Source: an uncultured Candidatus Saccharibacteria bacterium (lineage in GTDB: Bacteria > Patescibacteriota > Minisyncoccia > Phycocordibacterales > PALSA-1337). From it: a stretch of DNA of 64,000 nucleotides. The stretch covers positions 853 through 64,852 of the forward strand of contig CAZYBH010000004.1 in assembly GCA_964645315.1 (NCBI GenBank), given 5' to 3'. Under the pieces are notes generated by a model. That model saw nothing but the letters and a program-made list of their open reading frames with translations, was not told the origin of the DNA and did no database searches. Shown one piece after another: positions 11,404 through 46,544 of this stretch. The position numbers were made by a program, and so were the translations under genes. How positions within the stretch are numbered: position 1 is the first letter of the stretch; each line of letters opens with the position of its first letter.

Positions 11404-11405
11404 TT

Positions 11406-11741
11406 ATGCTTCCTAGCTCAAATAGGCTATCGGTAAAAGAGTTTAATGAAGTATTAGAAAAAGGAAGGGTTGTACACAATCCCCTTTTTTGGCTAAGAAC
11501 AATAAACTCCACAGACAAAACCCAAGTTTCGGTTATTTGCCCAAAAAAGGTTGGTAAAAATGCTGTTATTAGAAATAGATTTCGTAGGGTCGTTTACAGA
11601 TTAATTCAAGAAAATATCTTCAATTCTCTAGTTAATTCAAAAAATATCATATGTTTGAAAGATCCGGTAATTAAGGCCAACAGTACAGATTTGAGCCAAA
11701 ATTTAAAAGATATTTTTGTAAAAGCTAAGCTTTTGAAGTAG
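11406..11741 (+). CDS. rnpA: Ribonuclease P protein component
   Basis: RnpA RNR motif (VIRNRFRRVVYRLI); position directly after rpmH. Confidence 0.85.
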   Translation: MLPSSNRLSVKEFNEVLEKGRVVHNPLFWLRTINSTDKTQVSVICPKKVGKNAVIRNRFRRVVYRLIQENIFNSLVNSKNIICLKDPVIKANSTDLSQNLKDIFVKAKLLK

Positions 11742-13798: not shown

Positions 13799-13800
13799 AA

Positions 13801-15030: not shown

Positions 15031-15031
15031 A

Positions 15032-16048
15032 TTAATTATTGTTGGTGTCTATAGAATTAAACCTAATGGTAAAGTTTGAGCTGGCTTTTTGGAGTATGTC
15101 TTTTTTGTTTTTGATTGTTAATTCGATATTTGATGCACCGGATGAATTTTCTGGAGCACGGAGAGTAACTGATTGATTTTGAGATAATTCTGGTTTTTCG
15201 TAGTTATTTATCATCCATGTAAGTAGAAGATTGCCCAATCCATTGATTGGTTTATTGAAACCATAAGGTTGCATTATGACACTAACCTCTTTTTCTTTGC
15301 CGATAACGATATTTTCTGGCAAGATTTTGTTGTAAAGTGGTCCATATAGCGGATCATCGATATAAAAATTGAGACTAGGTGAGGCATAGCTTATGTTTAT
15401 GTATCCGGAGACTTTTTTCTGACCATCTCTTGTAAAAGCCGTGACTGTAATGGTCGTATCTCTGGGCACGATTTCACCCACTAGATTGAAACTTTGTTTG
15501 CCATAGCCACTTTGATCTTCGACACTTCGACTATTTCTCTTCCATTCATAAACAAGATTTTTTGGATCGTATTCTACACCTTTGGAATCAGCCAAATGAG
15601 GAATAGCAATAATATTTAGAGAATTTTGATAGGACACTGGTAATTTGCCCAAAAAGAGCGGTGGTGTATGGCCATCATTTTCTACAATCAAGTCTATAGA
15701 ACCAGAGCCGACTGACAATTTTCCTGAAACGCTAATGCCGTTTGATGAAAGGGCTTGGACTGTGACCAATGTCTCTTTGCCAAGAGCTGGGGCGGTGATC
15801 TCGTAGGAAGTTAGACCTGTACCCTTTTGGACTACCTTGTCATTTACTGACCAGGTCACATTTGCAGAATCTATATCTATGCTATAGCTACGCGCTCGGA
15901 TTGAGACTTTTTGACCTGGAGCGGGACTATCTATAGATGCGGTAAGCTCTAGACTATTTGCACTTACAGGTACACCTTGAGCATGAGCAAAGTCAAACTG
16001 AAATATAGAAAATGTTAGAGAAAATAATAAGAACAGAATTCTATTCAT
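15032..16048 (-). CDS. Secreted beta-rich protein (signal peptide), T4SS-like operon member
   Basis: Signal peptide MNRILFLLFSLTFSIFQFDFAHAQG; no TM beyond it; no identifiable domain. Confidence 0.55.
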   Translation of the reverse strand: MNRILFLLFSLTFSIFQFDFAHAQGVPVSANSLELTASIDSPAPGQKVSIRARSYSIDIDSANVTWSVNDKVVQKGTGLTSYEITAPALGKETLVTVQALSSNGISVSGKLSVGSGSIDLIVENDGHTPPLFLGKLPVSYQNSLNIIAIPHLADSKGVEYDPKNLVYEWKRNSRSVEDQSGYGKQSFNLVGEIVPRDTTITVTAFTRDGQKKVSGYINISYASPSLNFYIDDPLYGPLYNKILPENIVIGKEKEVSVIMQPYGFNKPINGLGNLLLTWMINNYEKPELSQNQSVTLRAPENSSGASNIELTIKNKKDILQKASSNFTIRFNSIDTNNN

Positions 16049-16081
16049 GGCTATATTTTAGCACAACAATTACAAAAACTA

Positions 16082-16519
16082 TTAGTCCAATCTTGGTGGA
16101 CGCACACCATTTTCATTGACCGGACTGGAACTATTGTAATTTGCATTTGAAGGCAATCTTACACCATCTTGGTATGCTGGCTTTCTTGGGTTGGAATATA
16201 TCTCTTCTTCGGCTTGTCGTTGTTTAAATTGAGCGTTGTCTTTTCGTGAAGCTTGATGAATGTAGAAAATATCTACTATCCAGGCCGGTGCAATTCCAAC
16301 AGAAAAAAACTCAGCTGCAGCAGTAAAACCAAGAAGTGAAATCAGTCTTGTGGGATGTTTTGTTAGATCTAAACCCCGCAATTTAAAATAACCAAAGAAT
16401 CCAATACCTATAAAAACATCAGCTAATAGATCAGCACCAGGAAAAAATATCTGAACAATATCGATTATAATAGCTACTATATAAACAAATATCCACTCGA
16501 TTATTCCTATTTTTGACAT
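16082..16519 (-). CDS. Small polytopic membrane protein (about 3 TM) with a Pro/Asn-rich tail, T4SS-like operon member
   Basis: Hydrophobic segments IIEWIFVYIVAIIIDIVQIFF, VFIGIGFFGYF, LISLLGFTAAAEFFSVGIAPAWIV. Confidence 0.55.
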   Translation of the reverse strand: MSKIGIIEWIFVYIVAIIIDIVQIFFPGADLLADVFIGIGFFGYFKLRGLDLTKHPTRLISLLGFTAAAEFFSVGIAPAWIVDIFYIHQASRKDNAQFKQRQAEEEIYSNPRKPAYQDGVRLPSNANYNSSSPVNENGVRPPRLD

Positions 16520-16520
16520 A

Positions 16521-18332
16521 TTATTGACCGGATTGCTCCAATTGCTTCTTTGCTTCCTTGATCTGCATAACTTGGGCTGGATTTGTGGTAATGATCTGAT
16601 CCTCGGTGTACGAACCTACGATTTTGATGGCGACATGCTTGAGTCCTACGAAGAATATACCCTCTCCCACGTCAGATTCTAGTAATAGATATTTCTCTTC
16701 ATCAGTAAGATTGAAGGTTTTTTGGATATGATCAATAACGGTTGGAGATTGCTTGAGTAGGATTTGCATTGAAGAGTTGGTAAGAATTGGCAAACCGTAA
16801 GGAGATTTGAGGAAGTCGTCCACGTCTTGGGTAATAGTTGCAAGACCAAGGAAATATTTGCGACCTCTCTTCGCTAGACCGAAAAGGAATGAGGCAGTAT
16901 CTTCTGATTTCATCATCCACCACGCCTCATCAATAACAAGAAGTCTTTTCTTGAGATTTTTGCGGATTGCATTCCAAATATAGTGAGTAACGATGTACAT
17001 AGCTACTGGTTTCAATTCGTCTTCCATGTCTCTTAGTGAAAAGACCACGAAGCGCTTATTGATATCGACATTTGTGGGACGATTGATGAAACTTGACCAG
17101 GTACCCTTTGTATATTTTGTAAGTCTTTGGACCAAAGATTCGGTGCCTTCCATTCCTGTCAAAACTAATTCGAAATCGGAAAGAAGCGGTGGCTCTATAT
17201 TGGCAAAATTGGATTCTGGAGTTATGTCTTTCAAAGCGTAGGTTTCGGTTATTGCCCTATCGATAATAGCGTCTTCTTCTTGAGTAAGCCCACCAAGCAT
17301 GATGCGGAATAGTCCAACTAGGTTTATTATATTTGAACGCAGAACATCACTAGCGGATTCATCTTCTCTTGGTATTGGTAGATCAAAAGGATTGATATGG
17401 TGTTCGGAATTGAGAGAAATGTTGAAATATTTGCCACCAGTAGCTGTGGACATATACTCATATTCTTTTTCGGGATCGATAACTATAACATCTGTATCAA
17501 ACATCAATGTTCTCAATATTTCTAGCTTGGTACAGTAGGATTTACCAGAACCAGCAACGGCAAAAGTAACTGAATTGTAATTTTCTAGGCTAAATCGATC
17601 AAATAAGACCAAAGAAGAATTGTGTCTATTTATGCCATAAAGTATGCCTTTGTCTGAAGTCAGGTCAAAAGAAACAAATGGAAATAGTGAAGAAAGTGGT
17701 GATGAATTGAGCTTTGAATTGACTTGAAGCATATCGTCACCTATCGGTATTACACTCTTGAAACCCTCTTCTTGTTGGAATAGGGCTGGTTTTACATAGA
17801 CAAGTTTGGATTCTAGTATTGATTTTATTTCTGATTCCAATTTGTCTAGCTCATTTTCATTGTCGGCAAAGATTGTAATATAAACACCAACATCAAAAAG
17901 GTGCTCTTGAGCTTGCATCAATTGATCGCGAAGATTTTCGAGATCTTGATAGGCTGTATCGAGCGATGGTTCGCGGACTAGACCCTTCTCTTCTCTTCTT
18001 GCTATCTGGCTTTGGACTTCAGCTACTTTCTTTTTGAAATGATGGAGAATCTTGGCTGTATCGACTGGATGAATGAAAATTGAAACATTAAAAACCTTGT
18101 CGAGATTGATTATTGGAGCAAACCAACCTTCATCGACAAATCTTGGATATGAAATGACGAAAAGTGTTCTGCCGATCTTTTCGCCTAAGTTGATATCTTT
18201 TGGGCTAATTTTGAGGGCGGAAGGAGCGATAATGTCTCTCAATTCCAAAACTCCAGCTTGATATATCTCTTCAGGCAAAACTGAGACTATTGGATCCTCT
18301 TTTTTACCAAATAATTTTGAAAAAAATGCCAT
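16521..18332 (-). CDS. virB4: VirB4/TrbE/CagE-family type IV secretion ATPase, ATPase (C-terminal) portion
   Basis: Walker A FAVAGSGKSYCTK; hallmark VirB4 Walker B LLVIDEAWWMM (DEAW); motif GLATITQDVDDF. Its start lies 1 nt after the stop of the upstream N-domain ORF. Confidence 0.8.
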   Translation of the reverse strand: MAFFSKLFGKKEDPIVSVLPEEIYQAGVLELRDIIAPSALKISPKDINLGEKIGRTLFVISYPRFVDEGWFAPIINLDKVFNVSIFIHPVDTAKILHHFKKKVAEVQSQIARREEKGLVREPSLDTAYQDLENLRDQLMQAQEHLFDVGVYITIFADNENELDKLESEIKSILESKLVYVKPALFQQEEGFKSVIPIGDDMLQVNSKLNSSPLSSLFPFVSFDLTSDKGILYGINRHNSSLVLFDRFSLENYNSVTFAVAGSGKSYCTKLEILRTLMFDTDVIVIDPEKEYEYMSTATGGKYFNISLNSEHHINPFDLPIPREDESASDVLRSNIINLVGLFRIMLGGLTQEEDAIIDRAITETYALKDITPESNFANIEPPLLSDFELVLTGMEGTESLVQRLTKYTKGTWSSFINRPTNVDINKRFVVFSLRDMEDELKPVAMYIVTHYIWNAIRKNLKKRLLVIDEAWWMMKSEDTASFLFGLAKRGRKYFLGLATITQDVDDFLKSPYGLPILTNSSMQILLKQSPTVIDHIQKTFNLTDEEKYLLLESDVGEGIFFVGLKHVAIKIVGSYTEDQIITTNPAQVMQIKEAKKQLEQSGQ

Positions 18333-18333
18333 A

Positions 18334-18975
18334 TTATCTAATTTGAATTGGCTTTTCGGTCTCGCCAGGATTGAAAAGCTTATAATATAATTCTACCACT
18401 TCTTCGGTACCTAGCTCGGCTGTTCTTATCCCACATCTTACAAGTCCTTGCTCTACGACAGCTATTCTCTGCTCAAGCTGGCTTCTATTTTCTTTGAATT
18501 GCATTTCGGCCGTCTCTTTTTGATCTTTGCCATGCGATCTACCAGGGAGAATCCTGGTAAGAGGATTGTTCGATATGCTTTGAGGGATCGGATCATAAGG
18601 CACTACGACAAAGAAACTTTTTGACATAATGTTTGTATTTTCTACAAAAGCCTTTACGAATTCTATATACTCGCGGACTTGAATTTTCATCAATTCGCTA
18701 ACCTGCTCTTTGTATCGATCTTCCAATAAAGCAATATATGGCCTTATATCGAGCTTTTTTGATTGGATTACAATTTGAACTGAGAAATCCAATGAGTTTA
18801 GGAAATTTTGGAATTGGAGAAGTATCGAAGCTTGCTCATCTTGAGACTTAAGAGCGAAGTTTAGAGATGAGGCCAATACAATAGATCTCATGCCTCCGTT
18901 TTTGAGGATAATAACCCCATCGCGAATCTCTTGAATGGGAACAAATTCTTGAGTTGTTTTTGAAGCTGTAGCCAT
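18334..18975 (-). CDS. VirB4 N-terminal domain encoded as a separate ORF (split VirB4)
   Basis: The pattern QEIRDGVIILKNGGMRSIVLASSLNFALKSQDEQ... matches the conserved start of VirB4/TraC N-domains (I-x-DG-x-I-x-x-x-G-x-x-x-x-x-I-x-L-x-G-x-x-F-x-L). 213 + 603 aa equals a typical full-length VirB4. Confidence 0.6.
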   Translation of the reverse strand: MATASKTTQEFVPIQEIRDGVIILKNGGMRSIVLASSLNFALKSQDEQASILLQFQNFLNSLDFSVQIVIQSKKLDIRPYIALLEDRYKEQVSELMKIQVREYIEFVKAFVENTNIMSKSFFVVVPYDPIPQSISNNPLTRILPGRSHGKDQKETAEMQFKENRSQLEQRIAVVEQGLVRCGIRTAELGTEEVVELYYKLFNPGETEKPIQIR

Positions 18976-19433
18976 TATTTTTGATTTTGATTAGAGTACA
19001 TACTCTCTTTGATATCCAATGACCATGTGAGATCTTTGAGTTTGCTGTCGGAGATTTTTGGTACCATAACTGAAGCGTAATTTTGATTTTCTTGAGCTTT
19101 ATCTTGCTTTTTGATGGGTTTATCGGACTTTTTCCAGATATATAGTTTGCTATTTGTATAATAATGAAAAGCTGATTCTAGTACACTGACGAAAGGTTTG
19201 TTGTTTATCTTGAGAAATGCCAAAGCGCTAGATGCTCCCATGATTATTGCTGCTGGGAATAATGAAAGGATGAAGTTGTCCAATATGACATATATGATAA
19301 ACGACAACCCTGCCCCACCGACGAGATAAATAAACTGCTTTAGGGTTAATTGCCCAAAGATCTTATCTTCCACTTCAATAAATTGAGGAACTTGGAATCG
19401 CATCGAATATATTATAACCCAAGCACAAAACAA
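18975..19433 (-). CDS. VirB3-like small membrane protein
   Basis: Immediately precedes the VirB4 N-domain ORF with a TAATG stop/start overlap. Contains a FGQLTLKQFIYLVGGAGLSFIIYVIL segment followed by a second hydrophobic helix, as in VirB3/TrbD/PrgI-type proteins. Confidence 0.5.
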   Translation of the reverse strand: MFCAWVIIYSMRFQVPQFIEVEDKIFGQLTLKQFIYLVGGAGLSFIIYVILDNFILSLFPAAIIMGASSALAFLKINNKPFVSVLESAFHYYTNSKLYIWKKSDKPIKKQDKAQENQNYASVMVPKISDSKLKDLTWSLDIKESMYSNQNQK

Positions 19434-19441
19434 AGTCTTGT

Positions 19442-21199
19442 TTATTCTATTGGTTCGCGATACGGATCGCCTTTATTGGATGTGCTTGGTCTTGAAATTG
19501 GACTAGGAATTGGCTTCGATTGATCAGTGAAGACCTTGTCACTGATGAAATGTGGCTTTGCCGGCTCCTCCACTTTGTCTTCAAGCATTTTTTCGGCCTG
19601 TTTGAAGTTATTTGGATCACTGATATCTATCGAAGGACTATTTTGGGCGATTTGCGATCTGATATCATTCCTCAATTCTTCTTGACTAGGTTCTGGCTTT
19701 TTTTCTTCCACTTTTGGTTCTTCGGTTTTCTTGATATTTTGCTTATCAAGTAAATTGATCGATTCTGCTGGAGGATTGCTTTCTATTGCTTTTATTGTTT
19801 CTTCGGCGACCTTTATATTGGCATCTTTTTTTGGCTCTTCGGCTGGAATCTGGCTAATTAATTTATTTAGCTCTACATCAATTGGCTTGGGGTTTGGCGT
19901 TTGTACTGGTATTGATGTTTGTATTGGTGTTTCTGTCGGAGTAGGTATGGTATCTGGAGTAGAAACTGGTGCTTGCACAGGTTCTGGCATATGTCTGACT
20001 TCTGCTGTGTCTGGTCTTACAACTTCTACGGATTCTTCTGTTGGCAAATTTGCTGGTATAGCAACCTCCTCTTTTTGCGGTTTAAACTCGTTTGTTCCTC
20101 CTTCTACAGTATTTTTGACCGTTTCTTCTTCAGTCTGATGTTCTTTTATTGCATCGTATAAATCAAAACTTGGTTTTGCATTTTCATCATCTTCTATATC
20201 AGAGTATTCGCCACTTTTGTTATCACTTTCATTATTATCGACTTCACCTTCTTCTTCCTCTTCCTTATCTGACTTCGTTTCCGTGTATTCATTTTTTCCC
20301 TCATCCTCTTCAATATCTGACTTCACTTCCCCATCTTCAATTTTTTCTTGATCCGCTTCTACTGTTTCCTCGTTTTTCTTTTCTCTTTTGTCCTCTGCTA
20401 TCTTTGCACTTTCATCGGTGTTTTCTGATTTTGATTCTGTTTCTGTATTTTGCTCTTCCCTGCTTTCTTCATTTGCACTAGAAAAATTGTAGTAAGTATG
20501 AGGATCAAAGTTTGATGCAACTTCATTTTCTGTGCTTACTATCTTTTCCTCCGTAATAGGTTTAATTTCTTCAGCTTTTATTTTTTGTTCAGGAATTTTC
20601 GCTTCCTCTATTTTTGTAATTGGTACATCTACTTTTGGTTTTGGAGCAATGCTATAAGCTTCTGAAGCTTTTTGTTCTTCCATAGCTCTTTGTTTTGCCA
20701 AGTATTCCCTTCTCTCTTGCATCATTTCTAATTCTGTCGGTACTGTAGTTTCAATTTTGAAATCACCAGCGCTTTCGAGGTCGGCGTGAGGAGACTCCTC
20801 CGCATCTTCTTTATCAATTCTGCCAAATTGACCAGAATTGGTCTTATAAGTTTCATTTACAATTTTTGGCGATGGAGCAGTATGGTTTTCGGATGATCTC
20901 ATAGACTCTCTTATTGAAGAGAATACTTTATCGCTAATCTCGGCAGTAATAATTCGGGCTTGTTTTTCGCCAATATTTAGTTCTCGAGCTAATGTTTGAG
21001 TGAATTGATTTTGTGGTATCAAGCCGAGCATTACATAGCTAGTAACATCAAATAAAATATCCATTTGGTCCAAAAGCAAGCCAAATTTACTGGATATTTC
21101 TTTTATATTTTCTGCGACTTGCGGAGAAGTCATGGCGAATTTGACTTCATCTGGAAGTGAAAGAAATTTATCTTCTATTGTTGAATAATCGAATTCCAT
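19442..21199 (-). CDS. Large acidic, low-complexity protein with a ~100-aa structured N-terminal domain (T4SS-like operon member)
   Basis: 585 aa; the N-terminal region looks globular; the remainder is E/K/D/T/P-rich and predicted disordered. The opposite-strand ORFs at 19520-20481 are compositional shadows. Confidence 0.6.
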   Translation of the reverse strand: MEFDYSTIEDKFLSLPDEVKFAMTSPQVAENIKEISSKFGLLLDQMDILFDVTSYVMLGLIPQNQFTQTLARELNIGEKQARIITAEISDKVFSSIRESMRSSENHTAPSPKIVNETYKTNSGQFGRIDKEDAEESPHADLESAGDFKIETTVPTELEMMQERREYLAKQRAMEEQKASEAYSIAPKPKVDVPITKIEEAKIPEQKIKAEEIKPITEEKIVSTENEVASNFDPHTYYNFSSANEESREEQNTETESKSENTDESAKIAEDKREKKNEETVEADQEKIEDGEVKSDIEEDEGKNEYTETKSDKEEEEEGEVDNNESDNKSGEYSDIEDDENAKPSFDLYDAIKEHQTEEETVKNTVEGGTNEFKPQKEEVAIPANLPTEESVEVVRPDTAEVRHMPEPVQAPVSTPDTIPTPTETPIQTSIPVQTPNPKPIDVELNKLISQIPAEEPKKDANIKVAEETIKAIESNPPAESINLLDKQNIKKTEEPKVEEKKPEPSQEELRNDIRSQIAQNSPSIDISDPNNFKQAEKMLEDKVEEPAKPHFISDKVFTDQSKPIPSPISRPSTSNKGDPYREPIE

Positions 21200-23151
21200 T
21201 ATCTAATTAATTTTGCATTATCAATCATATCTTGTAGATCATCTGTTCCCATTTGTGTAATATCGGTCGATCCTGCTGGTCCCCTTGTTGCCGCAGCAAT
21301 TTTTGCCTGCAAATCGCCCTCCTCGCGTAAGTTTAATGGACTAGCTGCTCCAAACCTAGCTTTCTCTCTTCTAATGTCAACTTGAACAGTCTCAAGTTTC
21401 TTCTTAAGATCGCCAATTGCCTCCTTCTTTTTATCGAGCTGCTTTTGCCAGACATCGATATTGATTTTTGCTGCAGCTGCTTTATTTTTTCTAGCTATTT
21501 TTGTAAATAAAGTTTCCGGATTAGCCATTCTACCCGCAATTCTTTTGGCGTAATCTGCCTGTCTTTCTTTTTGCTTGTTTGTTACGGCAGTTCCTAGCTG
21601 TCTCTTGAGATTTTCAACGTTTGCTTTATGCATATCGGCCATAGCTGTTCGTCCGGCTGCCCTCTCAATCTTCTCCATTGCAGACTCATCACGAATTAAT
21701 TCACCAGCTTCTCTTTTCATTTTTTGTACAGCTCCCTCATCAAAACCAAGAGAATTAGCAAAGTCTGTTCGCTCTTTTACCTGTTTATCAAGTTTTTCAT
21801 TGTAACTTTTTGCAGCACCGCGCAAATTATTTAGGGCAAATTGGCCTAAAGCATTTTTGGCTGCAAAATTTTTGACACCTTCAAGATTTGCCAACTTGCT
21901 AGCGGCTCTTCCTCCTGTATTTTGCCAAGCAGTGGCACCGGTACTATTCCAAGTTCTATTTCCAATAGTTTTCCAAATAGACAAAGCATCAAACTTACCT
22001 TTGTACTTGCTAATTATTTGTGTAGACCAGCCACCCATACTCAAAGCAACGAAAAGCGGTAGGTTTAGGACGACAATAACTATAGCGAAATTTACACCGA
22101 TTATAATAAATGGAAGAAGCCAGTTTGTACCTGTCATAGATGCATCATTCAGTGTATTACCGGTATCGAAAAATTCACTACCATTCAGAATAGAAAGCCC
22201 GACATACATAAGTAGTAGATATGTAGGCAAAAATATCAATTGTGCTTTGAGTTGAGTGGTAAAAAATGAAAAATGCTTCTTTACATCTGGTAATACCATG
22301 CCCGCCCAGTGCATAGATGAAAAGGCTAAGAGGAAAATTAGAACAACGGTTCTTGCCATCACTGCTATGGAGGCTAGAAGGAAGCTAATTCCAGTGGTAA
22401 ACATCATGACTACTCCAGCTAGACTAATGAGAGCAATTTTGACTGGATTTCCAAGGTTTGTACCAAGTTTATTGCCATTTGAATCGTATATTTTTTGAAT
22501 TCTAAGACTATTCATAAATATATTGGAAATATTGGCTTTTGAGTCACTTGCGACAATAGATGTTAGATTATTATCTTTATCAATTTTCACAACATTGTGT
22601 GTTGGTAGTATTGCATTGTATATTGCCTGAGAGACAATATTTGAAGCATCGATACCTACACTTGTAATGAAGAAGCTAAAATTAACAAGTACACCGGCAA
22701 TTACTATGTTTTTTATGGTTTTGCCATAATTACCCTCTCCCCAACCAGTGATCATCTGTATGGCTGCATAAAGCAAGTAGAAGATAAAGGCCATACCTGT
22801 AATGTCTCTCAATATTCTCCAAGTAGAAAATACGGCTGGGGTGGCATTGACAAAGTCTTTTATATTGAGAGTTAATCTCATGGCAACATCGAAGATATAG
22901 GCGCAAAAACCGAGGAATGTGGCGGTCGTAGACATTGCGAAAACTCCAATCATTGCCACTAGAGAATTGAACATATCTTGCAAACTCTCCGAACCAAATA
23001 TTTTTGCAAGCACGCTATTTCCTTGATTGTTAACATTTGACTGTACAGCTGAGCCAGTAGGTTTGTCTTGAGCAAATACAGGTGAAGCAATAGCAAAAAC
23101 ACTTGTTATTATCAGACTAAATATTAAGATTTTTGCTAATGTTTTTTTCAT
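21199..23151 (-). CDS. VirB6/TrbL-like polytopic membrane protein with signal peptide and a long charged coiled-coil C-terminal tail
   Basis: Signal peptide (…SPVFAQD); at least 6 predicted TM helices across residues ~60-380; about 270-aa K/E/R/A-rich C-terminal region. Co-operonic with VirB3/VirB4. Confidence 0.55.
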   Translation of the reverse strand: MKKTLAKILIFSLIITSVFAIASPVFAQDKPTGSAVQSNVNNQGNSVLAKIFGSESLQDMFNSLVAMIGVFAMSTTATFLGFCAYIFDVAMRLTLNIKDFVNATPAVFSTWRILRDITGMAFIFYLLYAAIQMITGWGEGNYGKTIKNIVIAGVLVNFSFFITSVGIDASNIVSQAIYNAILPTHNVVKIDKDNNLTSIVASDSKANISNIFMNSLRIQKIYDSNGNKLGTNLGNPVKIALISLAGVVMMFTTGISFLLASIAVMARTVVLIFLLAFSSMHWAGMVLPDVKKHFSFFTTQLKAQLIFLPTYLLLMYVGLSILNGSEFFDTGNTLNDASMTGTNWLLPFIIIGVNFAIVIVVLNLPLFVALSMGGWSTQIISKYKGKFDALSIWKTIGNRTWNSTGATAWQNTGGRAASKLANLEGVKNFAAKNALGQFALNNLRGAAKSYNEKLDKQVKERTDFANSLGFDEGAVQKMKREAGELIRDESAMEKIERAAGRTAMADMHKANVENLKRQLGTAVTNKQKERQADYAKRIAGRMANPETLFTKIARKNKAAAAKINIDVWQKQLDKKKEAIGDLKKKLETVQVDIRREKARFGAASPLNLREEGDLQAKIAAATRGPAGSTDITQMGTDDLQDMIDNAKLIR

Positions 23152-23152
23152 T

Positions 23153-24742
23153 TTATTGAACGTAACCTATACACATATAATTGTATTGACTCAATCTACC
23201 ATCGAGTTCCCTTGCTTTTGCTCTTGCTTCTGCAAGTTCGGTATCTGCCGAATCTATCTTAGATATCACACTAGCACCTCCGTTTGTAAGATAATCTGTA
23301 TACTTTACTGTTTGAGGTTGAATTTGATTTGAAGGATCATTTTCTACAGCATTGAGCATATCTTGAAGAGTTTTCTTTTCTTTCATACCGTCGTCATATT
23401 TCTTTTGATATTTTTGAATTAGAGGATCAATTTCATTGAATACAGTATTATCTATATCAGTAAGACCACCATTGAATCCTGTGCTATTTTGTCGTTCTGC
23501 AAGGCAAGATCTTACCGAGGTATATTTATTTCTTATAGCTGTCAATTCTGCTACAGCTACTTTATATTGATCTGTATACTTCGGAACTTGGGCTATAGAA
23601 GTGCTTATCGAATCCTTAAGCGATCCGGCTGTGTTCTTTAGAGCTTCTTGAGAGCTAATTTCTTTTGCCATAATTGATGAAGCAGAATTACTACCTCCAG
23701 AACTAAAGTTTTTCAAACCGCCACCCAAAACTTCCATTGTTAGTCTTGATACTAGTGCGGAGATGATTGCGTTTATATCATTTGCAAGCTCGAGTTCTAC
23801 AGTTGGAACATTGAGGCTTGTGTGTAGCTGATTTGCAATGACCGAACCTGGAGTCTGTGTTTCGCAAGTCTGGACTGTCTCAGTACCATTTTTATTTTTC
23901 TTGACTCTAGTACCAGCATCATTGCCTACAATGCCGTTAACTTCTTGTACTTGACCTGCATCTTCAGGATCATAAGTACCACCGGGCACATCCTTACAGC
24001 TTTGCCATGACATGAATCCTTGACCAAGCTGGAGATCGGCTCTTATAACATTTTGTCTTGAATTTATCCTTGCATCCAAATCAGCTTGAGCAGAAAGGAA
24101 TGCTCCATAAGGATTGTTTTGTGGTTCGGTAGTGAGAGCGAGGAATGCTGGCCAGCCACCTTGATTGAAATCACCTTTTAGGAATCCATTGTATGAGCTA
24201 TTGCTTGATCGTACTACTTTGCCATTTACTATTATGTCCGGACCATTCTTCTGGGCTTCTATTATTTTGCCAACCGTACATGTATATCTTTCGGTTGTCA
24301 GATTTGTCTTGCTTAGAGCAAGTGAAAGTCTAATATCTATTGCAAAAGGTGAACAGAGTGCTGATAGTGGTCCATTTGTAGCTAAGAATGCTCCGGTCAC
24401 TTGATCTGCGGCATCTAGGAAAAATGCTCCAGGATTGGACAAAAATGCTGGACTTCCCTCAAAGCCGTGATTTATCCAGTTGATGACATCTAGAGTAATT
24501 TTGTGTAATAGTTGTTTTGCTGCCAAAACCGCTGCTTTGTTTAGGACGAAATCTTTTAGATGGGTCCAAGTCAAGTTTAGGTAATTGGAAATACCTGTTG
24601 GGCTAGTATCTGCATTGACTATTACGCTATCTGCAACTCCGGCAACAGCATGAACTCTTCCAATATTTACAAATATGCTAGAAATAAAAATTGACAATAC
24701 AAGCAGTTTTAATATTAATTTTTTTGTTGAGGAAAAATTCAT
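23153..24742 (-). CDS. Secreted 529-aa protein (signal peptide), T4SS-like operon member
   Basis: Signal peptide MNFSSTKKLILKLLVLSIFISSIFVNIGRVHA; no TM afterwards; no recognisable catalytic motif. Confidence 0.55.
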   Translation of the reverse strand: MNFSSTKKLILKLLVLSIFISSIFVNIGRVHAVAGVADSVIVNADTSPTGISNYLNLTWTHLKDFVLNKAAVLAAKQLLHKITLDVINWINHGFEGSPAFLSNPGAFFLDAADQVTGAFLATNGPLSALCSPFAIDIRLSLALSKTNLTTERYTCTVGKIIEAQKNGPDIIVNGKVVRSSNSSYNGFLKGDFNQGGWPAFLALTTEPQNNPYGAFLSAQADLDARINSRQNVIRADLQLGQGFMSWQSCKDVPGGTYDPEDAGQVQEVNGIVGNDAGTRVKKNKNGTETVQTCETQTPGSVIANQLHTSLNVPTVELELANDINAIISALVSRLTMEVLGGGLKNFSSGGSNSASSIMAKEISSQEALKNTAGSLKDSISTSIAQVPKYTDQYKVAVAELTAIRNKYTSVRSCLAERQNSTGFNGGLTDIDNTVFNEIDPLIQKYQKKYDDGMKEKKTLQDMLNAVENDPSNQIQPQTVKYTDYLTNGGASVISKIDSADTELAEARAKARELDGRLSQYNYMCIGYVQ

Positions 24743-25695
24743 TATTTTTTATTTGTAATGAAAACCAAGCCATACTGATCAAATATAGTCTTCATATCAT
24801 CGACGGCCGAGCTGACTTTTTGGATTGAATCTAATTCGTGTCTGATGCCATTTAGAGCAGGAAGAGGATCTTTCTCTATATTTCTGATTACTTTTGCATT
24901 ATATATCTGCATCGAGACACCGTTTATAAGATTAAGATGTGGCAGTGCGAGCGTCTCTGGTACAGTGAGTGATTTGAGGCTATTGAGAGTTTTTTGGTAG
25001 CCAGAGATTATAGGATCGATATCCTTCAACAATTCCATATTGTCGGTTTCAAGAGCGCTCGTGACTATCTCTGCTTCATTTTTGTCAGGCATCCATTTGC
25101 TCAAAATACTCATGAGAGTTTCGGCGTAGTTTTTTATTGATTGAGCATCATTTGCATTTGGATTTATTTTTATGTCTTTGAGATCATAAACTTTTGCCCC
25201 GTCCATTTTGTCCAAACTTTCATTGATCAGTTGATTGGTTACTGATTCTACGGCACTGGCATTGTTGTTTAGGCCGGATTGTCTAAGTTCTGCGTATTTT
25301 GTAAAGAAATTTCTACTGAAAACTTCTGTGGCGGTTAGTTTTTGGTTTTGATTGGATTTGCTTATGTCGGTGGCTTTTTTTGTATCGACTTTTTGTTGTT
25401 TTTGATCGAAGAATTCTTTTTGCCAAGGCTCTTCCTTGAAACTTGTATCTTCTTTGACATTTATGATTGGTTTTACAGATTCGTTTTTGAATGAAACCTG
25501 TTTTGAGGAAGAAGGAAGGCCGTTTATCGCTATGTATGTACCAATAACAAAGAAGCCTGAAACAATAAATGTAATAAAAGTTTGGCTGCGTGGGTAGTAT
25601 TTAGCCATGCTATAAAGAATTATAGCAAAGAACCAAGCAAAATCGTATTTTTCTGTGGACAGTTTTATTGAATTTCTTTTGCAATCAAAAACCAA
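24742..25695 (-). CDS. Bitopic membrane protein (N-terminal TM helices + ~250-aa extracytoplasmic domain), first gene of the T4SS-like operon
   Basis: N-terminal hydrophobic helices FAWFFAIILYSMA / FITFIVSGFFVIGTYIAI. It overlaps the ksgA 3' end by 31 nt if the first ATG is used; a later start (M30) is possible. VirB8-like topology only. Confidence 0.45.
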   Translation of the reverse strand: MVFDCKRNSIKLSTEKYDFAWFFAIILYSMAKYYPRSQTFITFIVSGFFVIGTYIAINGLPSSSKQVSFKNESVKPIINVKEDTSFKEEPWQKEFFDQKQQKVDTKKATDISKSNQNQKLTATEVFSRNFFTKYAELRQSGLNNNASAVESVTNQLINESLDKMDGAKVYDLKDIKINPNANDAQSIKNYAETLMSILSKWMPDKNEAEIVTSALETDNMELLKDIDPIISGYQKTLNSLKSLTVPETLALPHLNLINGVSMQIYNAKVIRNIEKDPLPALNGIRHELDSIQKVSSAVDDMKTIFDQYGLVFITNKK

Positions 25696-33560: not shown

Positions 33561-35696
33561 TTAGAACTTTTTGTGTGGTGCTCTAGGCTTCGGAGTCTCT
33601 TCCTTTTTTGTAAAGAAGTTTGAATCTGCGGATTTGATGGATAGATTTAGTCTGCCCTTCTCGTCTTTTTCTTTTACGACAACTGGGACTTTGTCTCCTT
33701 CTTTGAGGTATGTTTCTACTCTTTCTACTCTAAATGGTGCTATTTCGGAAACATGAACCAAGCCTTCTGCATTTGGACCAATCTTTACGAATGCTCCGAA
33801 ATCCATCATCTTGACCACTTCCCCTTCGAACCTTTCACCGGGCAAATACTCTCTTGTCATGCCGTATATAATATCCTTGGCTTTTTGAGCGGTTTCATTC
33901 TTGCCAGTAATGAAGACGGTACCATCGTCTTCTATCGTAATATCTTCTACTTGAGTAACTTCTCTAATTTCATTTATAGTTTTACCACCAGTACCGATAA
34001 CGAGACCGATTTGATCGACTTTGATCTTCATCACGATGATTTCTGGTGCATTTGGTGAAATCTTCTCTCTTGGTTTGCTTATCTCCTTTTCGATAACATC
34101 AAGAATCCTTAGTCTTGCACTTTTTGCTTTTTCGAAGGCTTCGCTAAGTATTTTGAGTGGTATTCCACCGACTTTGACATCCATCTGGACTGCAGTGACT
34201 CCATCTCTTGTGCCCGCAACTTTGAAATCCATATCACCATGATGATCTTCTGGACCTTGAATATCGGTAAGAACCTTGTACTCTTTGTCATTTTTCATCA
34301 TAAGTCCAGAAGCGATACCTGCTACCGGAGCCTTGATAGGTACACCACCGTCCATAAGAGCTAGTGTAGAACCGCAAACCGAACCCATCGATGTTGAACC
34401 ATTTGAAGCTAGAGCTTCTGATACAAGACGGATTGTATATGGAAATACTTCTTTGTCTGGTATCACTGCTTGCAAAGCTTTTTCTGCCAAAGCGCCGTGG
34501 CCGATCATTCTTCTATTTGTACCACCCATCCTTCCCACTTCACCAGTCGAAAATGGTGGAAAATTGTAATGATGCATGAATCGCTTATTTTCTTGGACTG
34601 TTAGACCATCAATGAGTAGAGCATCTCCTGGTGATCCCAAAGTGAGAATAGAAAGAACGTGAGTACCTCCACGATAAAACGTACCCGCTCCATGAATAAT
34701 CGGTGAAATACCGCCAGCTTTTGCAAAAAGTGGTCTTATCTCATCCATAGTACGTCCATCAGGTCTACGATTGTTATTTATAGCTTGTTCGTGTAGCAAA
34801 TCATTGACCGCTTCATCGAAAATCATCATAGCCATGCCTAGATTTCCTTCTGGGAAGTTTTGTATGAATACTTTTTCCCATTTATCGGTTATTTCTTCTA
34901 GTTTTTTCTTGCCCGGTCCACTGAAAACATAATCAGGTAAGTCATTTTTGATTTCTTTATCAAATAGTTCTCTAGTACCAGGAGTCTCTTCGGGCAATTG
35001 GACCTGTCTTTTTGTCTTGCCTATTTCTTTTATAATATTTTTTTGCCAGACTTGAATCTTCTCTATCTCGCTACTTGCCAAAGCCAAAGCTTCGTTTATG
35101 AGATCTTCTTTTACTTCTTTACTACCAACTTCAATCATATTTATCATGCCATCTTTACCGCAAGCTATAAGATCAAGGCTAGAATCAACAGCTTCCCTGT
35201 CTTTTGTTAGAGGGTTAACGATCAAAGCTTCCTTTTTTGCAATTCTTACAGCCGAAGCGGGTCCATTCCATGGAATATCGGATGTACCAAGCGCAAGTGA
35301 TGCGGCTATTACAGAGATTGGATCAGGATCTTCTTCTCCTATAGAAATAGTAGTCACAACGACCTGTACTTCATTGCGGATTTTCTGATCAAATAAAGGG
35401 CGAATTGTACGATCGACAATTCTTCCAGAAAGTATTGCCTCCGTGGAAGGTCTACCCTCTCTTCTCATGAATCTTGAGCCTAGGATCTTACCTGTTGCAT
35501 AAAAACGCTCTTCATAATCGACAGTCAATGGGAAAAAGTCTCCGTCTTTTGGATTTTTGCCCATAACAGATGTTGCTAATATTACGGTATTGCCGTATTT
35601 CAAACTAACAGAACCGTGGCTTTGATCTGCCAAGTCATTAAATTCGGCTGTAAGTGTCTTACCTCCGATTTCTATTGAGTATTCTTTTTTTGTCAT
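33561..35696 (-). CDS. pnp: Polyribonucleotide nucleotidyltransferase (PNPase)
   Basis: Two RNase PH domains, KH and S1 C-terminal domains; motifs such as GGTNRRMIGHGALAE; 711 aa. Confidence 0.95.
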   Translation of the reverse strand: MTKKEYSIEIGGKTLTAEFNDLADQSHGSVSLKYGNTVILATSVMGKNPKDGDFFPLTVDYEERFYATGKILGSRFMRREGRPSTEAILSGRIVDRTIRPLFDQKIRNEVQVVVTTISIGEEDPDPISVIAASLALGTSDIPWNGPASAVRIAKKEALIVNPLTKDREAVDSSLDLIACGKDGMINMIEVGSKEVKEDLINEALALASSEIEKIQVWQKNIIKEIGKTKRQVQLPEETPGTRELFDKEIKNDLPDYVFSGPGKKKLEEITDKWEKVFIQNFPEGNLGMAMMIFDEAVNDLLHEQAINNNRRPDGRTMDEIRPLFAKAGGISPIIHGAGTFYRGGTHVLSILTLGSPGDALLIDGLTVQENKRFMHHYNFPPFSTGEVGRMGGTNRRMIGHGALAEKALQAVIPDKEVFPYTIRLVSEALASNGSTSMGSVCGSTLALMDGGVPIKAPVAGIASGLMMKNDKEYKVLTDIQGPEDHHGDMDFKVAGTRDGVTAVQMDVKVGGIPLKILSEAFEKAKSARLRILDVIEKEISKPREKISPNAPEIIVMKIKVDQIGLVIGTGGKTINEIREVTQVEDITIEDDGTVFITGKNETAQKAKDIIYGMTREYLPGERFEGEVVKMMDFGAFVKIGPNAEGLVHVSEIAPFRVERVETYLKEGDKVPVVVKEKDEKGRLNLSIKSADSNFFTKKEETPKPRAPHKKF

Positions 35697-35722: not shown

Positions 35723-35778
35723 CTCCAGATTACAGATTGCAATTTATACAAATTGCTATCAAACCTGTTTATCTGGAG
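35723..35778 (-). promoter_or_regulatory. pnp 5'-leader stem-loop (candidate RNase III / autoregulatory hairpin)
   Basis: Inverted repeat CTCCAGAT ... ATCTGGAG enclosing an inner hairpin TTGCAATTT/AAATTGC, located 27-82 nt upstream of the pnp start codon. Confidence 0.4.
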
Positions 35779-35844: not shown

Positions 35845-36372
35845 CTACGACTTCTCTTTGCCTCTTATTTTCATCAAATATTTCTCTGGATGTTGGTCCA
35901 AATCCATAAAATGATCGGCCACCTCTATGAGCTTTGCTGAAGTAGATTTGCCGAAGCAGGCTACTTCTACCTGGCAACCCTGATTCATTTGGAGGAATTC
36001 TACAAGCGGTACGAAGTCTCCATCTCCTGTCACAAGTACGACAGAGTCGAGTTTTGGGGCCATCTTGACTGCATCTATAGCAAGACCGACATCCCAGTCT
36101 GCCTTCTTTGCTCCAGAACTAAATATCTGTAGATCTTTGACTTTTGTTTCGATGCCGACCTTTGTCAAAGCATCAAAAAAAGCATTTTCATCTCCTGATT
36201 CTGTAGAGATTACATAAGCGACGGCGCGGACAAGCTTCCTTCCGTCCAAGGCGTCTTTCAAAATTTGGCCAAAATTGACCTTTGAATGATAAATGTTTTT
36301 GCCACTATGATAGAGGTTTTGCGTGTCTATAAAAATGCCGACACGCTGTTCTTTATGTTTAATTATTGACAT
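35845..36372 (-). CDS. NYN-domain (LabA/DUF88, PIN-like) protein, predicted RNase-fold
   Basis: VGIFIDTQNLYHS ... VLVTGDGDFVPLVE: the conserved acidic residues of the NYN/PIN fold. It sits between rpsO and pnp. Confidence 0.7.
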   Translation of the reverse strand: MSIIKHKEQRVGIFIDTQNLYHSGKNIYHSKVNFGQILKDALDGRKLVRAVAYVISTESGDENAFFDALTKVGIETKVKDLQIFSSGAKKADWDVGLAIDAVKMAPKLDSVVLVTGDGDFVPLVEFLQMNQGCQVEVACFGKSTSAKLIEVADHFMDLDQHPEKYLMKIRGKEKS

Positions 36373-36422
36373 ATGAAAATTATTAATAACTTATTAAAAT
36401 GATTCTAATTGAATTATAGCAG

Positions 36423-36525
36423 ATTCCGCGGTGCAGGCATATTTTATTTTTATGCGCCCTGCATAACTCGCTTCGCTCAAACATGCTCGGACTCATAAAA
36501 ATAAAATATGCCTGCACCGCGGAAT
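36423..36525. repeat. Perfect 32-bp inverted repeat (arms 36423-36454 and 36494-36525) with a 39-nt spacer
   Basis: ATTCCGCGGTGCAGGCATATTTTATTTTTATG and its exact reverse complement. Read on the - strand it lies in the rpsO 3'UTR / NYN-gene 5' region. Confidence 0.8.
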
Positions 36526-36548
36526 TTATCTACTCTAGACAGATTGAA

Positions 36549-36662
36549 GTTGCGGTAATGTATATTTTTAAAAAATCTTGCGCAGGCACACAGGTGCCGA
36601 GCAAAAGGAAAAATCCTAGCAAGGATTTATTCCGGTTTTTTAAAAATATACATTAACGCAAC
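36549..36662. repeat. 27-bp inverted repeat with one mismatch (arms 36549-36575 and 36636-36662), 60-nt spacer containing two inner hairpins
   Basis: GTTGCGGTAATGTATATTTTTAAAAAA versus TTTTTTAAAAATATACATTAACGCAAC. The spacer contains AAATCCTAGCAAGGATTT and GCAGGCACACAGGTGCC stems. It starts 7 nt after the rpsO stop. Confidence 0.75.
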
Positions 36663-36668
36663 GAGAGA

Positions 36669-36935
36669 CTACTTCTTGAGGTCTAGTTTCTTGATCAAAG
36701 ATGAGTATCTTCGAGGATGATTCTTCTTGAGATAGTTGAGGTGGTTTTGACGATCTGCAACCATACCTAGCAATCCCCTTCTTGAGTGATTGTCCTTGCG
36801 ATGTTTGCGTAGATGATCGGTCAATTCGTCAATTCGCTTTGTGAGAAGAGCAATCTGCACTTCAGGAGAGCCATTGTCCTTATCGTGAATGGCTGTTTCT
36901 TTTATAATTTTGCTCTTTTGTCTTGGGGTTAACAT
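36669..36935 (-). CDS. rpsO: 30S ribosomal protein S15
   Basis: …GSPEVQIALLTKRIDELTDHLRKHRKDNHSRRGLLGMVADRQNHLNYLKK matches the S15 consensus. Start placed at MLTPRQK; the track ORF extends 24 codons further upstream. Confidence 0.9.
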   Translation of the reverse strand: MLTPRQKSKIIKETAIHDKDNGSPEVQIALLTKRIDELTDHLRKHRKDNHSRRGLLGMVADRQNHLNYLKKNHPRRYSSLIKKLDLKK

Positions 36936-37325: not shown

Positions 37326-38249
37326 ATGAACATGTCGCACAATATCGAGGAAGCAAAACAGCAATTTTTGGAATATGTTGAGATAGAAAAAGGCCGATCT
37401 TTGAATACGGTTCGCAATTATGATCAGTACTTGACCCGTTTTATAGACTATACAAAACTCAAAAACGCCGAGGATATTACAGAAAAAGTTGTGCGAGAGT
37501 TCCATCTATGGCTCAATAGACAACTAAGTGACAAAAAGCAAAAGACGACCCTAAAAAGAAAAACTCAAAACTATTATCTAATTGCTTTACGATCCTTCCT
37601 CAAATTTCTTGCAAAAAGAGGTATAAAATCCCTTTCTCCAGAACATATAGAATTAGCTAAGGTTGGTGAAAGACCTCTCGATCTGATATCAGGTGAAGAG
37701 CTAAAAAGGTTGATGAATTCGTCAAATGGTCAGGATCTTAAGTCTTTGCGTGATAAAGCTATATTGGAATTACTATTTTCTACTGGTTTGCGTGTATCCG
37801 AGCTTTGTTCCCTATCTAGAGATGTAGATATTGATGCAGATGAATTATCGATAAGAGGCAAAGGTGAGAAAATTCGAGTGGTTTTCATTTCTCCTGAAGC
37901 TAGAAAGGCAGTCAAAGAATATTTGAATAAAAGAGCAGATATAGACGACGCTTTATTTATTAGGATGAATCGTGAAGAAGCAAAAGGTGGTGATATGGCT
38001 CTAGATACCCGTTCGGTACAGAGGATTATCAAGCAATGCGCCATTAAGGCCGGTATTTCAAAAAAAGTTACTCCTCACGTAATTCGCCATTGTTTTGCCA
38101 CTGACCTACTATCAAATGGAGCCGATCTACGCTCTGTACAGATGCTTTTGGGTCATTCAAATATAAGTACGACGCAGATATATACTCATATAACAGATTC
38201 GGAACTCAAAAGGGTTCATAAGCAGTTTCATAATAAAAAACGGGGGTAA
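37326..38249 (+). CDS. xerD: Tyrosine site-specific recombinase XerC/XerD family
   Basis: Core-binding N-domain; catalytic R...HxxR...Y motifs: LRVSELCSL, HVIRHCFATDLLSNGADLRSVQMLLGHSNISTTQIYTH. Confidence 0.9.
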   Translation: MNMSHNIEEAKQQFLEYVEIEKGRSLNTVRNYDQYLTRFIDYTKLKNAEDITEKVVREFHLWLNRQLSDKKQKTTLKRKTQNYYLIALRSFLKFLAKRGIKSLSPEHIELAKVGERPLDLISGEELKRLMNSSNGQDLKSLRDKAILELLFSTGLRVSELCSLSRDVDIDADELSIRGKGEKIRVVFISPEARKAVKEYLNKRADIDDALFIRMNREEAKGGDMALDTRSVQRIIKQCAIKAGISKKVTPHVIRHCFATDLLSNGADLRSVQMLLGHSNISTTQIYTHITDSELKRVHKQFHNKKRG

Positions 38250-38315
38250 TTACGCAGGTTGCACCTCTACAAATAATATTTATTCAGGGCTTTATTTATT
38301 AGCAAACAAAAAAGG

Positions 38316-40571: not shown

Positions 40572-41167
40572 GTTAGGAGCATAGCAAATGTTAGTTTTTC
40601 AGACACGCGAAGTCTTGCAAGACTTTGCTCTGTTTCGGAAATTTCTTGCTAGAAATTTCCTGCAAACGGTCTTCAAAACCAACATTTGCAATGCCGATTA
40701 CTCACTGAATTAGTCGTAAAGAATTAGAAGTAAAAAACCGCGTGGAGCGCAGTCTAGGAAAGACTGGTCACGCGGTTTATAGTCTTCCCGAAAGAAGACG
40801 AAAGGGACCAAAGAACAAGGGGTACGAAAACCCTGTGGCCATAAATGAATAGGCCATTTCCTGACAAGACGATTCCTAATGGGAGATCAAACGCATTGCT
40901 ACTCTACATGCTGTGCTCTCCAGATTGGAGGCAATTTTTTTATTGAGAGAGAATGTTTGACCTTTGACCCCGAGCAATCGAACGTCGGAAAAAAGTTTCG
41001 GAAAGACTTCGAACGGAGTATGAAGCCTACCACACACATTTTCCAAAGAACATTTTCATCTGATTGTGGAACTTTAAAAACAAATATATTTTTATTTTCA
41101 AAATTCCACAATCTCCTCGGTCGATGAACTTGTCTGGGTATATTTTATGTCCTTAATAAAAAAGTGT

Positions 41168-41207
41168 AAAGGACATACTGTGGATAACTCAAAATATTGT
41201 GTCCTTT
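41168..41207. terminator. Hairpin AAAGGACA-N24-TGTCCTTT (candidate cca terminator on the - strand) carrying a perfect DnaA box TGTGGATAA in its loop
   Basis: 8-bp stem; on the - strand it is followed by a T-run. The loop contains TGTGGATAA (41179-41187). Confidence 0.4.
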
Positions 41208-41263
41208 ATATATTTGAATTTTGACTTTTATTTTGTTAGCCAAAAATACCCTTATTTATAGGC

Positions 41264-46160: not shown

Positions 46161-46544
46161 TTGTTTATTTATTATCTATTAATTTTTAATGGTCTCGATC
46201 ATATTCATAAAACAATGAACCTGAATCGAGTTTCGTACCACGGCATAATTATATAATAAGCCATTTTTTAAGCAACAGGTAACTGTGAGTTGACATATTA
46301 GATAAATATTGTTACAATTCTATAAGAAATTTTAAATTGTTGTATTTGAGGTGAGGGGTGCCAGGTGGTAAATCTTCTGAGTCGACGAGTCCGATTTCGC
46401 TGAGTTTTTTCCTTGTGGAAAGTTGATCCGGCGAACAGGATTTTTAAATTCACGACACAATGATGAAAACACCTCGTCCTTGCCCATGCCCTGGATGACG
46501 AATCGCAGGGCTTACCTCAAATATTGCAATTTAGTAAAATTAAC

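Follow-up and report, generated by a model that had tools for sequence, protein, structure and literature searches.

The two hairpins between rpsO and the NYN gene

The stretch described here is a 64-kb window of DNA from an uncultured Candidatus Saccharibacteria bacterium (contig CAZYBH010000004.1, positions 853 to 64,852), and its subject is a pair of very long inverted repeats, IR1 and IR2, which lie one after the other between rpsO and a gene encoding a NYN-domain protein. The rpsO gene encodes ribosomal protein S15, the NYN-domain protein is of the LabA/DUF88 type, and the next gene, pnp, encodes polynucleotide phosphorylase (PNPase). IR2 begins 6 nt past the rpsO stop codon and is followed by IR1 (Table 1). 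The window is called WIN where it is compared with the loci of relatives, which carry L-numbers. Comparison of these loci shows that elements of this kind are acquired and lost, take one another's place, nest, reach new sites by duplication and change orientation.

In the preliminary description of this DNA, IR1 was given as a perfect 32-bp repeat with a 39-nt loop and IR2 as a 27-bp repeat with one mismatch and a 60-nt loop, and both descriptions are exact. The genes on either side were also named correctly (Table 1). The complementarity of IR1 extends over 37 nt at 95%, with a 37-pair helix spanning 36418-36534. The two inner hairpins reported in the IR2 loop are seen on folding, P2 being formed by GGAAUAAAUCC-UUGCU-AGGAUUUUUCC and P3 by UUUUGCUCGGCAC-CUGU-GUGCCUGCGCAAGA. 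When the inverted repeats of the 64-kb window were ranked by length, IR1 and IR2 were the top two. The minus-strand RNA of 36373-36668, the folding of which had been proposed as a check, is strongly structured, with -124.4 kcal/mol against -61.0 +/- 4.8 kcal/mol for shuffles (z = -13.3). A 57-aa open reading frame (ORF) over the hairpins (36483-36656, plus strand) has no Pfam match, is on record nowhere and was rejected.

Chimeras of multiple displacement amplification can yield long perfect inverted repeats, at which assemblers break, and k=31 Logan contigs end exactly within the 32-bp arm of IR1. An assembly or amplification artefact (chimeric inverted duplications) is nevertheless effectively refuted by the occurrence of the hairpins, or of compensated diverged orthologs, in independent assemblies. 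Two independent Logan assemblies (two runs) include IR2 in full together with the pair of IR1 arms, and ENA and NCBI assemblies of close relatives from other projects contain diverged orthologous hairpins.

Table 1. Features of the rpsO-NYN-pnp locus and the probable second family member, in positions of the window.
Feature	Position	Strand	Description
IR1 element	36423..36525	-	Closing stem of 32 bp, perfect; arms 36494-36525 and 36423-36454; 39-nt loop
IR1 core (loop)	36455..36493	-	AGUCCGAGCAUGUUUGAGCGAAGCGAGUUAUGCAGGGCG; includes the GCGAAGC word
Spacer between hairpins	36526..36548	-	Poorly conserved (alignment of WIN with L083)
IR2 element	36549..36662	-	27-bp closing stem, 1 mismatch; arms 36636-36662 and 36549-36575; 60-nt core
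IR2 core	36576..36635	-	Two inner hairpins (P2 and P3) giving a three-way junction
IR2-type member, second and diverged (probable)	40586..40688	+	Starts 15 nt past the stop of an exonuclease III-like gene
rpsO (ribosomal protein S15)	36669..36935	-	PF00312 E=6e-31; TIGR00952 E=3e-32
Extended -10-like box (TGnTATAAT) for the NYN gene	36413..36421	-	TGCTATAAT; abuts/overlaps the base of the IR1 helix
NYN 5'-region word	36390..36399	-	TTTTAATAAG (also written TTTTAATAA); recurrent in relatives
NYN-domain gene (LabA/DUF88-type)	35845..36372	-	PF01936 E=2e-34
pnp leader hairpin	35723..35778	-	Conserved; lower stem covaries
pnp (polynucleotide phosphorylase)	33561..35696	-	RNase_PH (two), KH and S1 domains

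Hairpin turnover and the IR2-type core family

The distant comparison set consisted of 80 species-representative related genomes (loci L003-L082), with every sampled locus centred on rpsO. No homolog of the IR1 or IR2 hairpin was found in these 80 loci. The rpsO-NYN spacer of 76 genomes is 10-1199 nt long, mostly 60-140 nt, and holds at most an ordinary small hairpin, apart from sporadic long stems in L003, L004, L016, L017, L049 and L070, the sequences of which are mutually unrelated and unlike IR1 and IR2. The preliminary description had suggested a lineage-specific RNA-processing or regulatory module in the rpsO-pnp region, and had named beforehand the absence of the structure from orthologous loci of close relatives as an argument against a conserved regulatory role. 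Most of the 76 spacers have no long stem at the orthologous position, the long stems that do occur differ in sequence, and the hairpins are swapped or missing even in relatives that are 94-99% identical; the outcome is against such a role and against the proposed module. The records of L021 and L054 read 'Nanoarchaeia archaeon' and 'Gammaproteobacteria' despite a Paceibacteria rpsO-NYN pair, and these are probably binning or labelling errors.

Close relatives were retrieved via exact-protein look-ups and have four types of spacer. The first is that of WIN (296 nt, IR2 and IR1). The second (297 nt; L088/89/90/93/94) contains both hairpins with a few uncompensated mismatches, and the third (392 nt; L092 and L083, which equals L087) contains IR1 together with a 38-bp hairpin, A', that replaces IR2. 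The fourth (about 200 nt; L086 and L097/L098) contains a single hairpin orthologous to IR2 and lacks IR1, with the NYN 94% identical. Orthologs of IR1 are confined to near-species-level relatives (L083/L087, L088-L094 and L092), and those of IR2 were found in L088, L086, L097 and L077. Identity between L087 and L088 is 99.4% over rpsO and 95% on the downstream side, and nevertheless 177 nt stand in place of 85 nt between them, with identical breakpoints. Presence/absence polymorphism is evident from the lack of IR1 in L086 and L097, from the exchange of IR2 for A' in L083 and L092, and from a further site that is filled in L044 and empty in L046. Together with the family copies described below, these comparisons show dispersal to non-orthologous sites in both orientations, and gain, loss and replacement between genomes that are 94-99% identical.

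Between WIN and L083, the IR1 stem has five differences, each of which is compensated on the opposite arm (5/32 pairs doubly substituted), and 96% of the cells of the stem are paired; the core or loop is 90% identical and the arms 84%. For IR2, WIN and L097 are 83% identical in the core, which is the conserved portion of the IR2-type family, about 76% in the flanks and about 65% in the arms, which are nonetheless complementary. Taken overall, with the element at 40586 included, the same two loci are 80-83% identical in the cores, 52-66% in the arms and about 76% in the flanks. Each element is composed of a conserved apical core and a fast-changing, still complementary closing stem. The stem sequence varies among copies and evolves more quickly than the DNA on either side, but its Watson-Crick pairing remains almost perfect. 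The core is a three-way junction of about 60 nt in IR2 and a segment of about 39 nt containing GAGCGAAGCGAG in IR1, and only the inner ~10 bp of the closing stems (TTTTTAAAAAC-like) are loosely common between copies.

Palindromes are also found inside palindromes. In hairpin A' of L083 and L092, an 85-nt palindrome is nested within the IR1 core (GTCTGAGCGAA ... GCGAGTTCCGCAGG) and divides it, L004 differs from L003 by the addition of a 40-nt palindrome, and in L034 a palindrome takes the place of P3b. At an orthologous site of L044 and L051, the genes on either side are in collinear order, with 60% and 69% amino-acid identity, and the cores are 81% identical on opposite strands; the core has therefore flipped between its arms. 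Most relatives carry a plain A-tract/T-tract terminator at this site, and in L046, the closest relative of L044, the right arm of the L044 element is represented by its outer T-tract alone, which makes the outer arms of the element look like former terminator arms. A resemblance of the L003/L004 core to the IR1 core, seen by eye, was unsupported by BLAST and was dropped. A metagenome scan with a 22-mer of the IR1 core returned one match only, in L085, an unrelated GC-rich metagenome contig in which positions 3501-3524 match the core exactly over 24 nt (CTGAGCGAAGCGAGTTACGCAGGG) in an intergenic hairpin context; this match could reflect either chance or a widespread motif.

The IR2-type family was searched with an nhmmer profile of the IR2 core and then with two covariance models, R1 and R2. 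The core was found in L051, L077, L034, L061, L040, L074 and L044 (E 1e-19 to 0.04), and IR2 itself scores 104.8 and 95.9 bits with R1 and R2 respectively. The family core has the signature ...CACG-[P2 with a UGCU loop]-...yGCUCG-[P3b]-CUGCGCrAG..., and each member has a long, near-perfect closing stem of its own, 13-33 bp in length. Some copies adjoin rpsO, on its 3' side or, on either strand, on its 5' side; others are antisense between the NYN gene and pnp, or lie kilobases away. The antisense copy is that of L074, and those of L061 and L040 lie between divergent genes. L051 contains two confident copies within 8.5 kb, 2.7 kb apart and on opposite strands. Four or five independent copies start 6-43 nt past a stop codon. 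In an alignment of 10 sequences, which is model-fitted and thus leans towards structure, 88% of the cells are paired compared with 72% in shuffles and at most 59% with the partners slid, 19/29 pairs are changed on both sides, and P2 covaries at 10/10 pairs. To the extent that such an alignment can, this covariation of the inner helices over distant genomes shows the structure of the core to be under selection.

The probable second member in the window (40586-40688) matches the IR2 architecture and the CGG-[hairpin]-CCUGC frame. The P3b hairpin of this element is the same small module as the P2 hairpin of IR2, placed elsewhere, and a MAFFT alignment of all family members that misplaced its P3b onto P2 was not used for a model. 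The ortholog in L097 has a core that is 83% identical and arms that are 52-55% identical yet complementary. The window contains one confident and one probable copy, and at most two were seen in any sampled stretch. The search for further copies of the arms that was proposed earlier as a test for a repeat element came out negative, with neither the IR1 nor the IR2 arms having another copy within the window at up to 3 mismatches (0/100 shuffles match). This test is unsuitable, as it would miss elements in which the cores recur and the arms do not.

Other structured or conserved regions were observed. The region from about 40700 to 41260, which separates the exonuclease III-like gene from the CCA-enzyme gene, looks non-coding and is strongly conserved in L097 and partly elsewhere; it has no convincing ORF and no Rfam match, and could be an RNA or encode a small protein. 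Two inverted repeats at 2387-2549 and 46333-46533, with 25- and 23-bp stems and multi-branched interiors of 113 and 155 nt, are located between a type II secretion system ATPase gene and ruvB and between the genes for RNase Y and HU respectively, and may be further palindromic elements or RNAs. Upstream of rpsO in L061 (3076-3574, Kaiserbacteria), a cluster of four hairpins includes a family member on the opposite strand, and this pile-up resembles that of the window.

Nature of the constraint and rival explanations

The modelled family pairs include 7 G·U/U·G and 9 A·C/C·A pairs, which corresponds to a wobble of about 3-4% on either strand. Selection of an RNA on one strand would be expected to permit G·U but not A·C pairs, and this strand symmetry therefore points to DNA. 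Folding of the single-stranded DNA (ssDNA) is also comparable on the two strands (-42.5/-39.4, -35.8/-40.6 and -28.8/-29.0 kcal/mol). The symmetric pairing, the folding of ssDNA from both strands and the inversion of the core point to a constraint at the DNA level.

On balance, IR1 and IR2 are probably two different members of a group of modular, nested palindromic DNA elements of Paceibacteria, located mostly at terminator positions and similar to MITEs (miniature inverted-repeat transposable elements) and to REPINs, the hairpin-forming doublets of repetitive extragenic palindromic (REP) sequences. The palindromic mobile or REP-like element that the preliminary description offered as its alternative is much closer to this than its regulatory module. 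The constraint would act on the DNA, in a hairpin/cruciform or ssDNA form, rather than on a single RNA strand. The arms would be kept complementary by arm-to-arm copying through quasipalindrome template switching, by selection for the hairpin, or by both; template switching perfects quasipalindromes (PMC7202029). New modules would be inserted into the tips of hairpins already in place, terminators for example, and the outer arms would thereby be derived from the target. A bolder form of the proposal is a structure-homing class of mobile DNA in bacteria of the candidate phyla radiation (CPR), with modules inserted into hairpin tips by a structure-specific enzyme, Russian-doll palindromes and a flippable segment between the arms; this is speculative and rather unlikely.

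Several observations weigh against the mobile-element interpretation. IR2 is 97% identical between WIN and L088 in surroundings that are 84% identical, which means either constraint or recent recombination. Covariation of the core is equally expected for a functional RNA, and the alignment from which it was counted favours structure. Of the independent family copies, about eight in number, five directly adjoin rpsO; this could point to a function linked to the locus, although the association is biased because all sampled loci were centred on rpsO. The member at 40586-40688 is marginal when taken alone, scoring only 18.4 bits (E=0.054) with R1 and filters off. With at most two copies in each sampled stretch, and these diverged, there has been no recent burst. 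The family has no conserved terminal inverted repeat, no target-site duplication was seen by inspection around IR1, IR2 or 40586-40688, and the 64-kb window contains no transposase, Y1 or REP-associated tyrosine transposase (RAYT) gene, or other partner gene.

Because IR1 and IR2 lie between the rpsO stop codon and the putative NYN promoter, they would be transcribed as the 3' untranslated region (UTR) of rpsO. The rpsO mRNA would then receive a double-stranded RNA (dsRNA) tail of 27-37 bp, a substrate for RNase III and a block to 3' exonucleases, so that the dsRNA stems of RNase III grade described earlier are correct if the region is transcribed. Under the mobile-element interpretation this tail would be the de facto 3'-end structure of rpsO as a side consequence, and not a dedicated regulator or conserved design. 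The competing explanation is that the hairpins are a cis-acting RNA, an rpsO 3'-UTR or NYN-upstream module that terminates or stabilises the rpsO mRNA and is cut by RNase III, with a core that binds S15, the NYN protein or PNPase. The position directly past the rpsO stop codon, the length of the stems (27-37 bp), the covariation of the core helices over distant genomes, the five copies beside rpsO and the raised conservation of IR2 between WIN and L088 are all in its favour, as are the lack of another canonical terminator after rpsO and the precedent of rpsO-pnp biology in E. coli. However, the hairpins are missing from most orthologous loci, and the family includes an antisense copy (L074), copies between divergent genes (L061, L040) and a core that is flipped at an orthologous site. 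There is no sense-strand excess of G·U, and a strand-specific cis-RNA would not easily explain either this or the inverted core; the bias of the rpsO-centred sampling further lowers the weight of the rpsO association. A terminator scan returned nothing at 36373-36668, and neither stem is followed by a U-tract, the stems preceding UUCAAUCUG and CUGCUAUAAU, so IR1 and IR2 are not canonical intrinsic terminators. Only tRNAs pass the Rfam gathering threshold in the window, and the hairpins have no Rfam match. A cis-acting RNA is accordingly an unlikely explanation. Two specific RNA candidates were rejected. A hammerhead reading of the IR1 words AUGAGUCCG leaves the catalytic core unmatched and has no Rfam match, and a mimic of the S15-binding site at the IR2 apex is contradicted by a G-U/G-C motif that is not conserved on inspection and by copies in both orientations.

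The strand-symmetric Watson-Crick pairing would also suit resident, non-mobile DNA structures, namely terminators that have grown by template switching during replication and whose cores bind a host protein (HU/IHF-like or Xer) in chromosome biology. Also in favour of this, the 3' flank GCAACTTC of A' in L083 reappears in inverted form, GAAGTTGC, in the 5' arm, all that L046 shows of the right arm of L044 is the outer T-tract, the copies are few, old and diverged, the window has no transposase, and a Xer-type recombinase gene adjoins rpsO. This explanation is decidedly unlikely, since homologous cores at non-orthologous sites, twice in one genome, require movement or duplication, and since the replacement between identical breakpoints in near-identical genomes is cassette-like. 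A stand-alone small RNA or guide-like hairpin, in which the variable stem is processed to small RNAs that match targets such as phage, is very improbable. The conserved core with variable arms is superficially like a scaffold with a guide, and the only near-matches in Rfam are miRNA-precursor models (the best sub-threshold matches, at 25 bits against thresholds of 100-110). Against this, the arms match nothing else in the window, a search of 2.9 million viral contigs left 2/3 arms without a match, the four viral matches of the third arm are one phage sequence sharing a single chance-level 19-mer, and the hairpins have no evident promoter or terminator of their own.

Known elements and the conserved parts of the locus

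No description of such elements in CPR bacteria was found in the searchable literature. The elements appear to behave like Correia repeat-enclosed elements (CREE), MITEs and REPINs while lacking conserved terminal repeats or REP arms, and their layout is inverted. Terminal inverted repeats common to the copies, as in MITEs, are not found, as the stems differ even between orthologs (52-66% identity). In E. coli, the pnp-leader hairpin of the rpsO-pnp region is processed by RNase III, is conserved and serves PNPase autoregulation. The hairpins described here are similar in having long stems between rpsO and pnp, of sufficient length for RNase III, but they precede the NYN gene and are not conserved; the analogue is the hairpin at 35723-35778. 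The attC sites of integrons are imperfect palindromes 3' of ORFs that are active as folded single strands, with a conserved structure and a variable stem sequence. IR1 and IR2 likewise lie just 3' of ORFs and keep their structure while the stem sequence varies. However, attC sites have a variable terminal structure and R boxes (RYYYAAC...GTTRRRY), whereas the IR2 apex is conserved. An attC identity of IR2 was rejected, as it reads GTTGCG...CGCAAC on both strands, the reverse order of the R boxes, and there is no integron integrase.

CREE (NEMIS) of Neisseria are intergenic, ~100-155 bp in length, strain-variable and near genes, with long inverted repeats around a conserved core, and when transcribed they form hairpins that are bound or cleaved by RNase III (PMC2649163). 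In contrast to the present elements, in which the arms vary, only the core is common, no duplication was seen and copy number is apparently low, CREE share 26-bp terminal repeats and TA target duplications and number 100-250 copies per genome. REPINs are likewise extragenic palindromes that form hairpins and persist by vertical inheritance; changes on one side of the hairpin are commonly compensated on the other, and the structure has been proposed to act in ssDNA or mRNA (PMC3116915). REPINs consist of two conserved REP 16-mers as arms around a variable spacer and need a RAYT, whereas the layout here is the opposite, with variable arms and a conserved core, and no RAYT is encoded in the window. 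REPIN-like doublets of CCCCGCGAAGGCGGGG were observed in L017 (two copies, 1176-1372 and 3792-3879) and L049 (one copy, ~3800-3900), with arms that are themselves hairpins (GTCATCCCCGCGAAGGCGGGGATCC); some of these are located in the rpsO-NYN spacer. Organelle repetitive or double-hairpin elements likewise form hairpins and repeatedly invade intergenic regions, but they are eukaryotic and their sequences are unrelated to IR1 and IR2 (PMC2800124).

The conserved structure of regulatory type at this locus would be the pnp leader hairpin rather than the giant hairpins. The preliminary description had placed it correctly, and it proves to be real and conserved with covariation over many relatives, being present in WIN, L087, L097, L006, L015, L004, L012, L019 and L067 with the conserved words GAUARRCAG...CUGWAAUC. 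It has no Rfam match. It is likely the counterpart of the E. coli pnp leader and, from its sequence and pairing, a candidate PNPase autoregulatory leader.

The rpsO gene is directly upstream of the NYN gene in 76/80 genomes, and pnp lies within 4 kb in only 43. Since the rpsO-NYN pair is kept in this way, the NYN gene is the conserved partner of rpsO and not an interruption peculiar to this genome; the earlier description of a gene interrupting rpsO-pnp stands as to its position between the two and fails as to the interruption. The NYN protein has 7366 homologs at E<=1e-60. The NYN-proximal block of the intergenic region (positions 247-296) differs between WIN and L083 at just three positions, and it is the sole intergenic stretch that matches repeatedly, at the same position, in distant loci. 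The word TTTWAWAA occurs within the last 80 nt before the NYN gene in 48/74 relatives, and TGnTAnAnT or TATAAT boxes are found repeatedly among relatives; the TGCTATAAT box may act as the NYN promoter. The pairing suggests a ribosome- or RNA-linked role for the NYN protein.

By its NYN protein the window is assigned to Patescibacteria/Paceibacteria. It is otherwise ordinary chromosome, with dnaA-dnaN-rnpA, ruvABC, a cluster resembling a type IV secretion system (T4SS), a pilus cluster, and genes for the CCA enzyme, HU, RNase Y and NusA. The dnaN, dnaA and rnpA genes at 8401-11741 mark the chromosomal origin region, followed at 12509-25695 by the T4SS-like cluster (TraG/VirB4-like ATPase, PrgI and T4SS pilin). 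The 55 ORFs of the window include no transposase, Y1/RAYT or RNase III (rnc) gene, and the sole recombinase gene is the XerC/D-like gene adjoining rpsO. Within the Xer-type gene, 289 nt (~37960-38250) are 100% identical to L088 1551-1839 in surroundings that are 84% identical; the L088 gene is truncated, and the identity could be due to recent recombination or an assembly chimera.

CPR/Patescibacteria have small genomes, in which repeats and mobile DNA are considered scarce. A family such as that proposed here would add a new flavour of bacterial miniature elements, with a layout opposite to that of MITEs and REPINs, and would explain contig breaks in CPR assemblies and supply strain-level markers. 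It would also raise the question of which enzyme recognises the hairpin tips or the three-way-junction core. For the locus itself, the result corrects a tempting over-interpretation, as regulatory conservation would reside in the pnp leader and the rpsO-NYN pairing and not in the giant hairpins.

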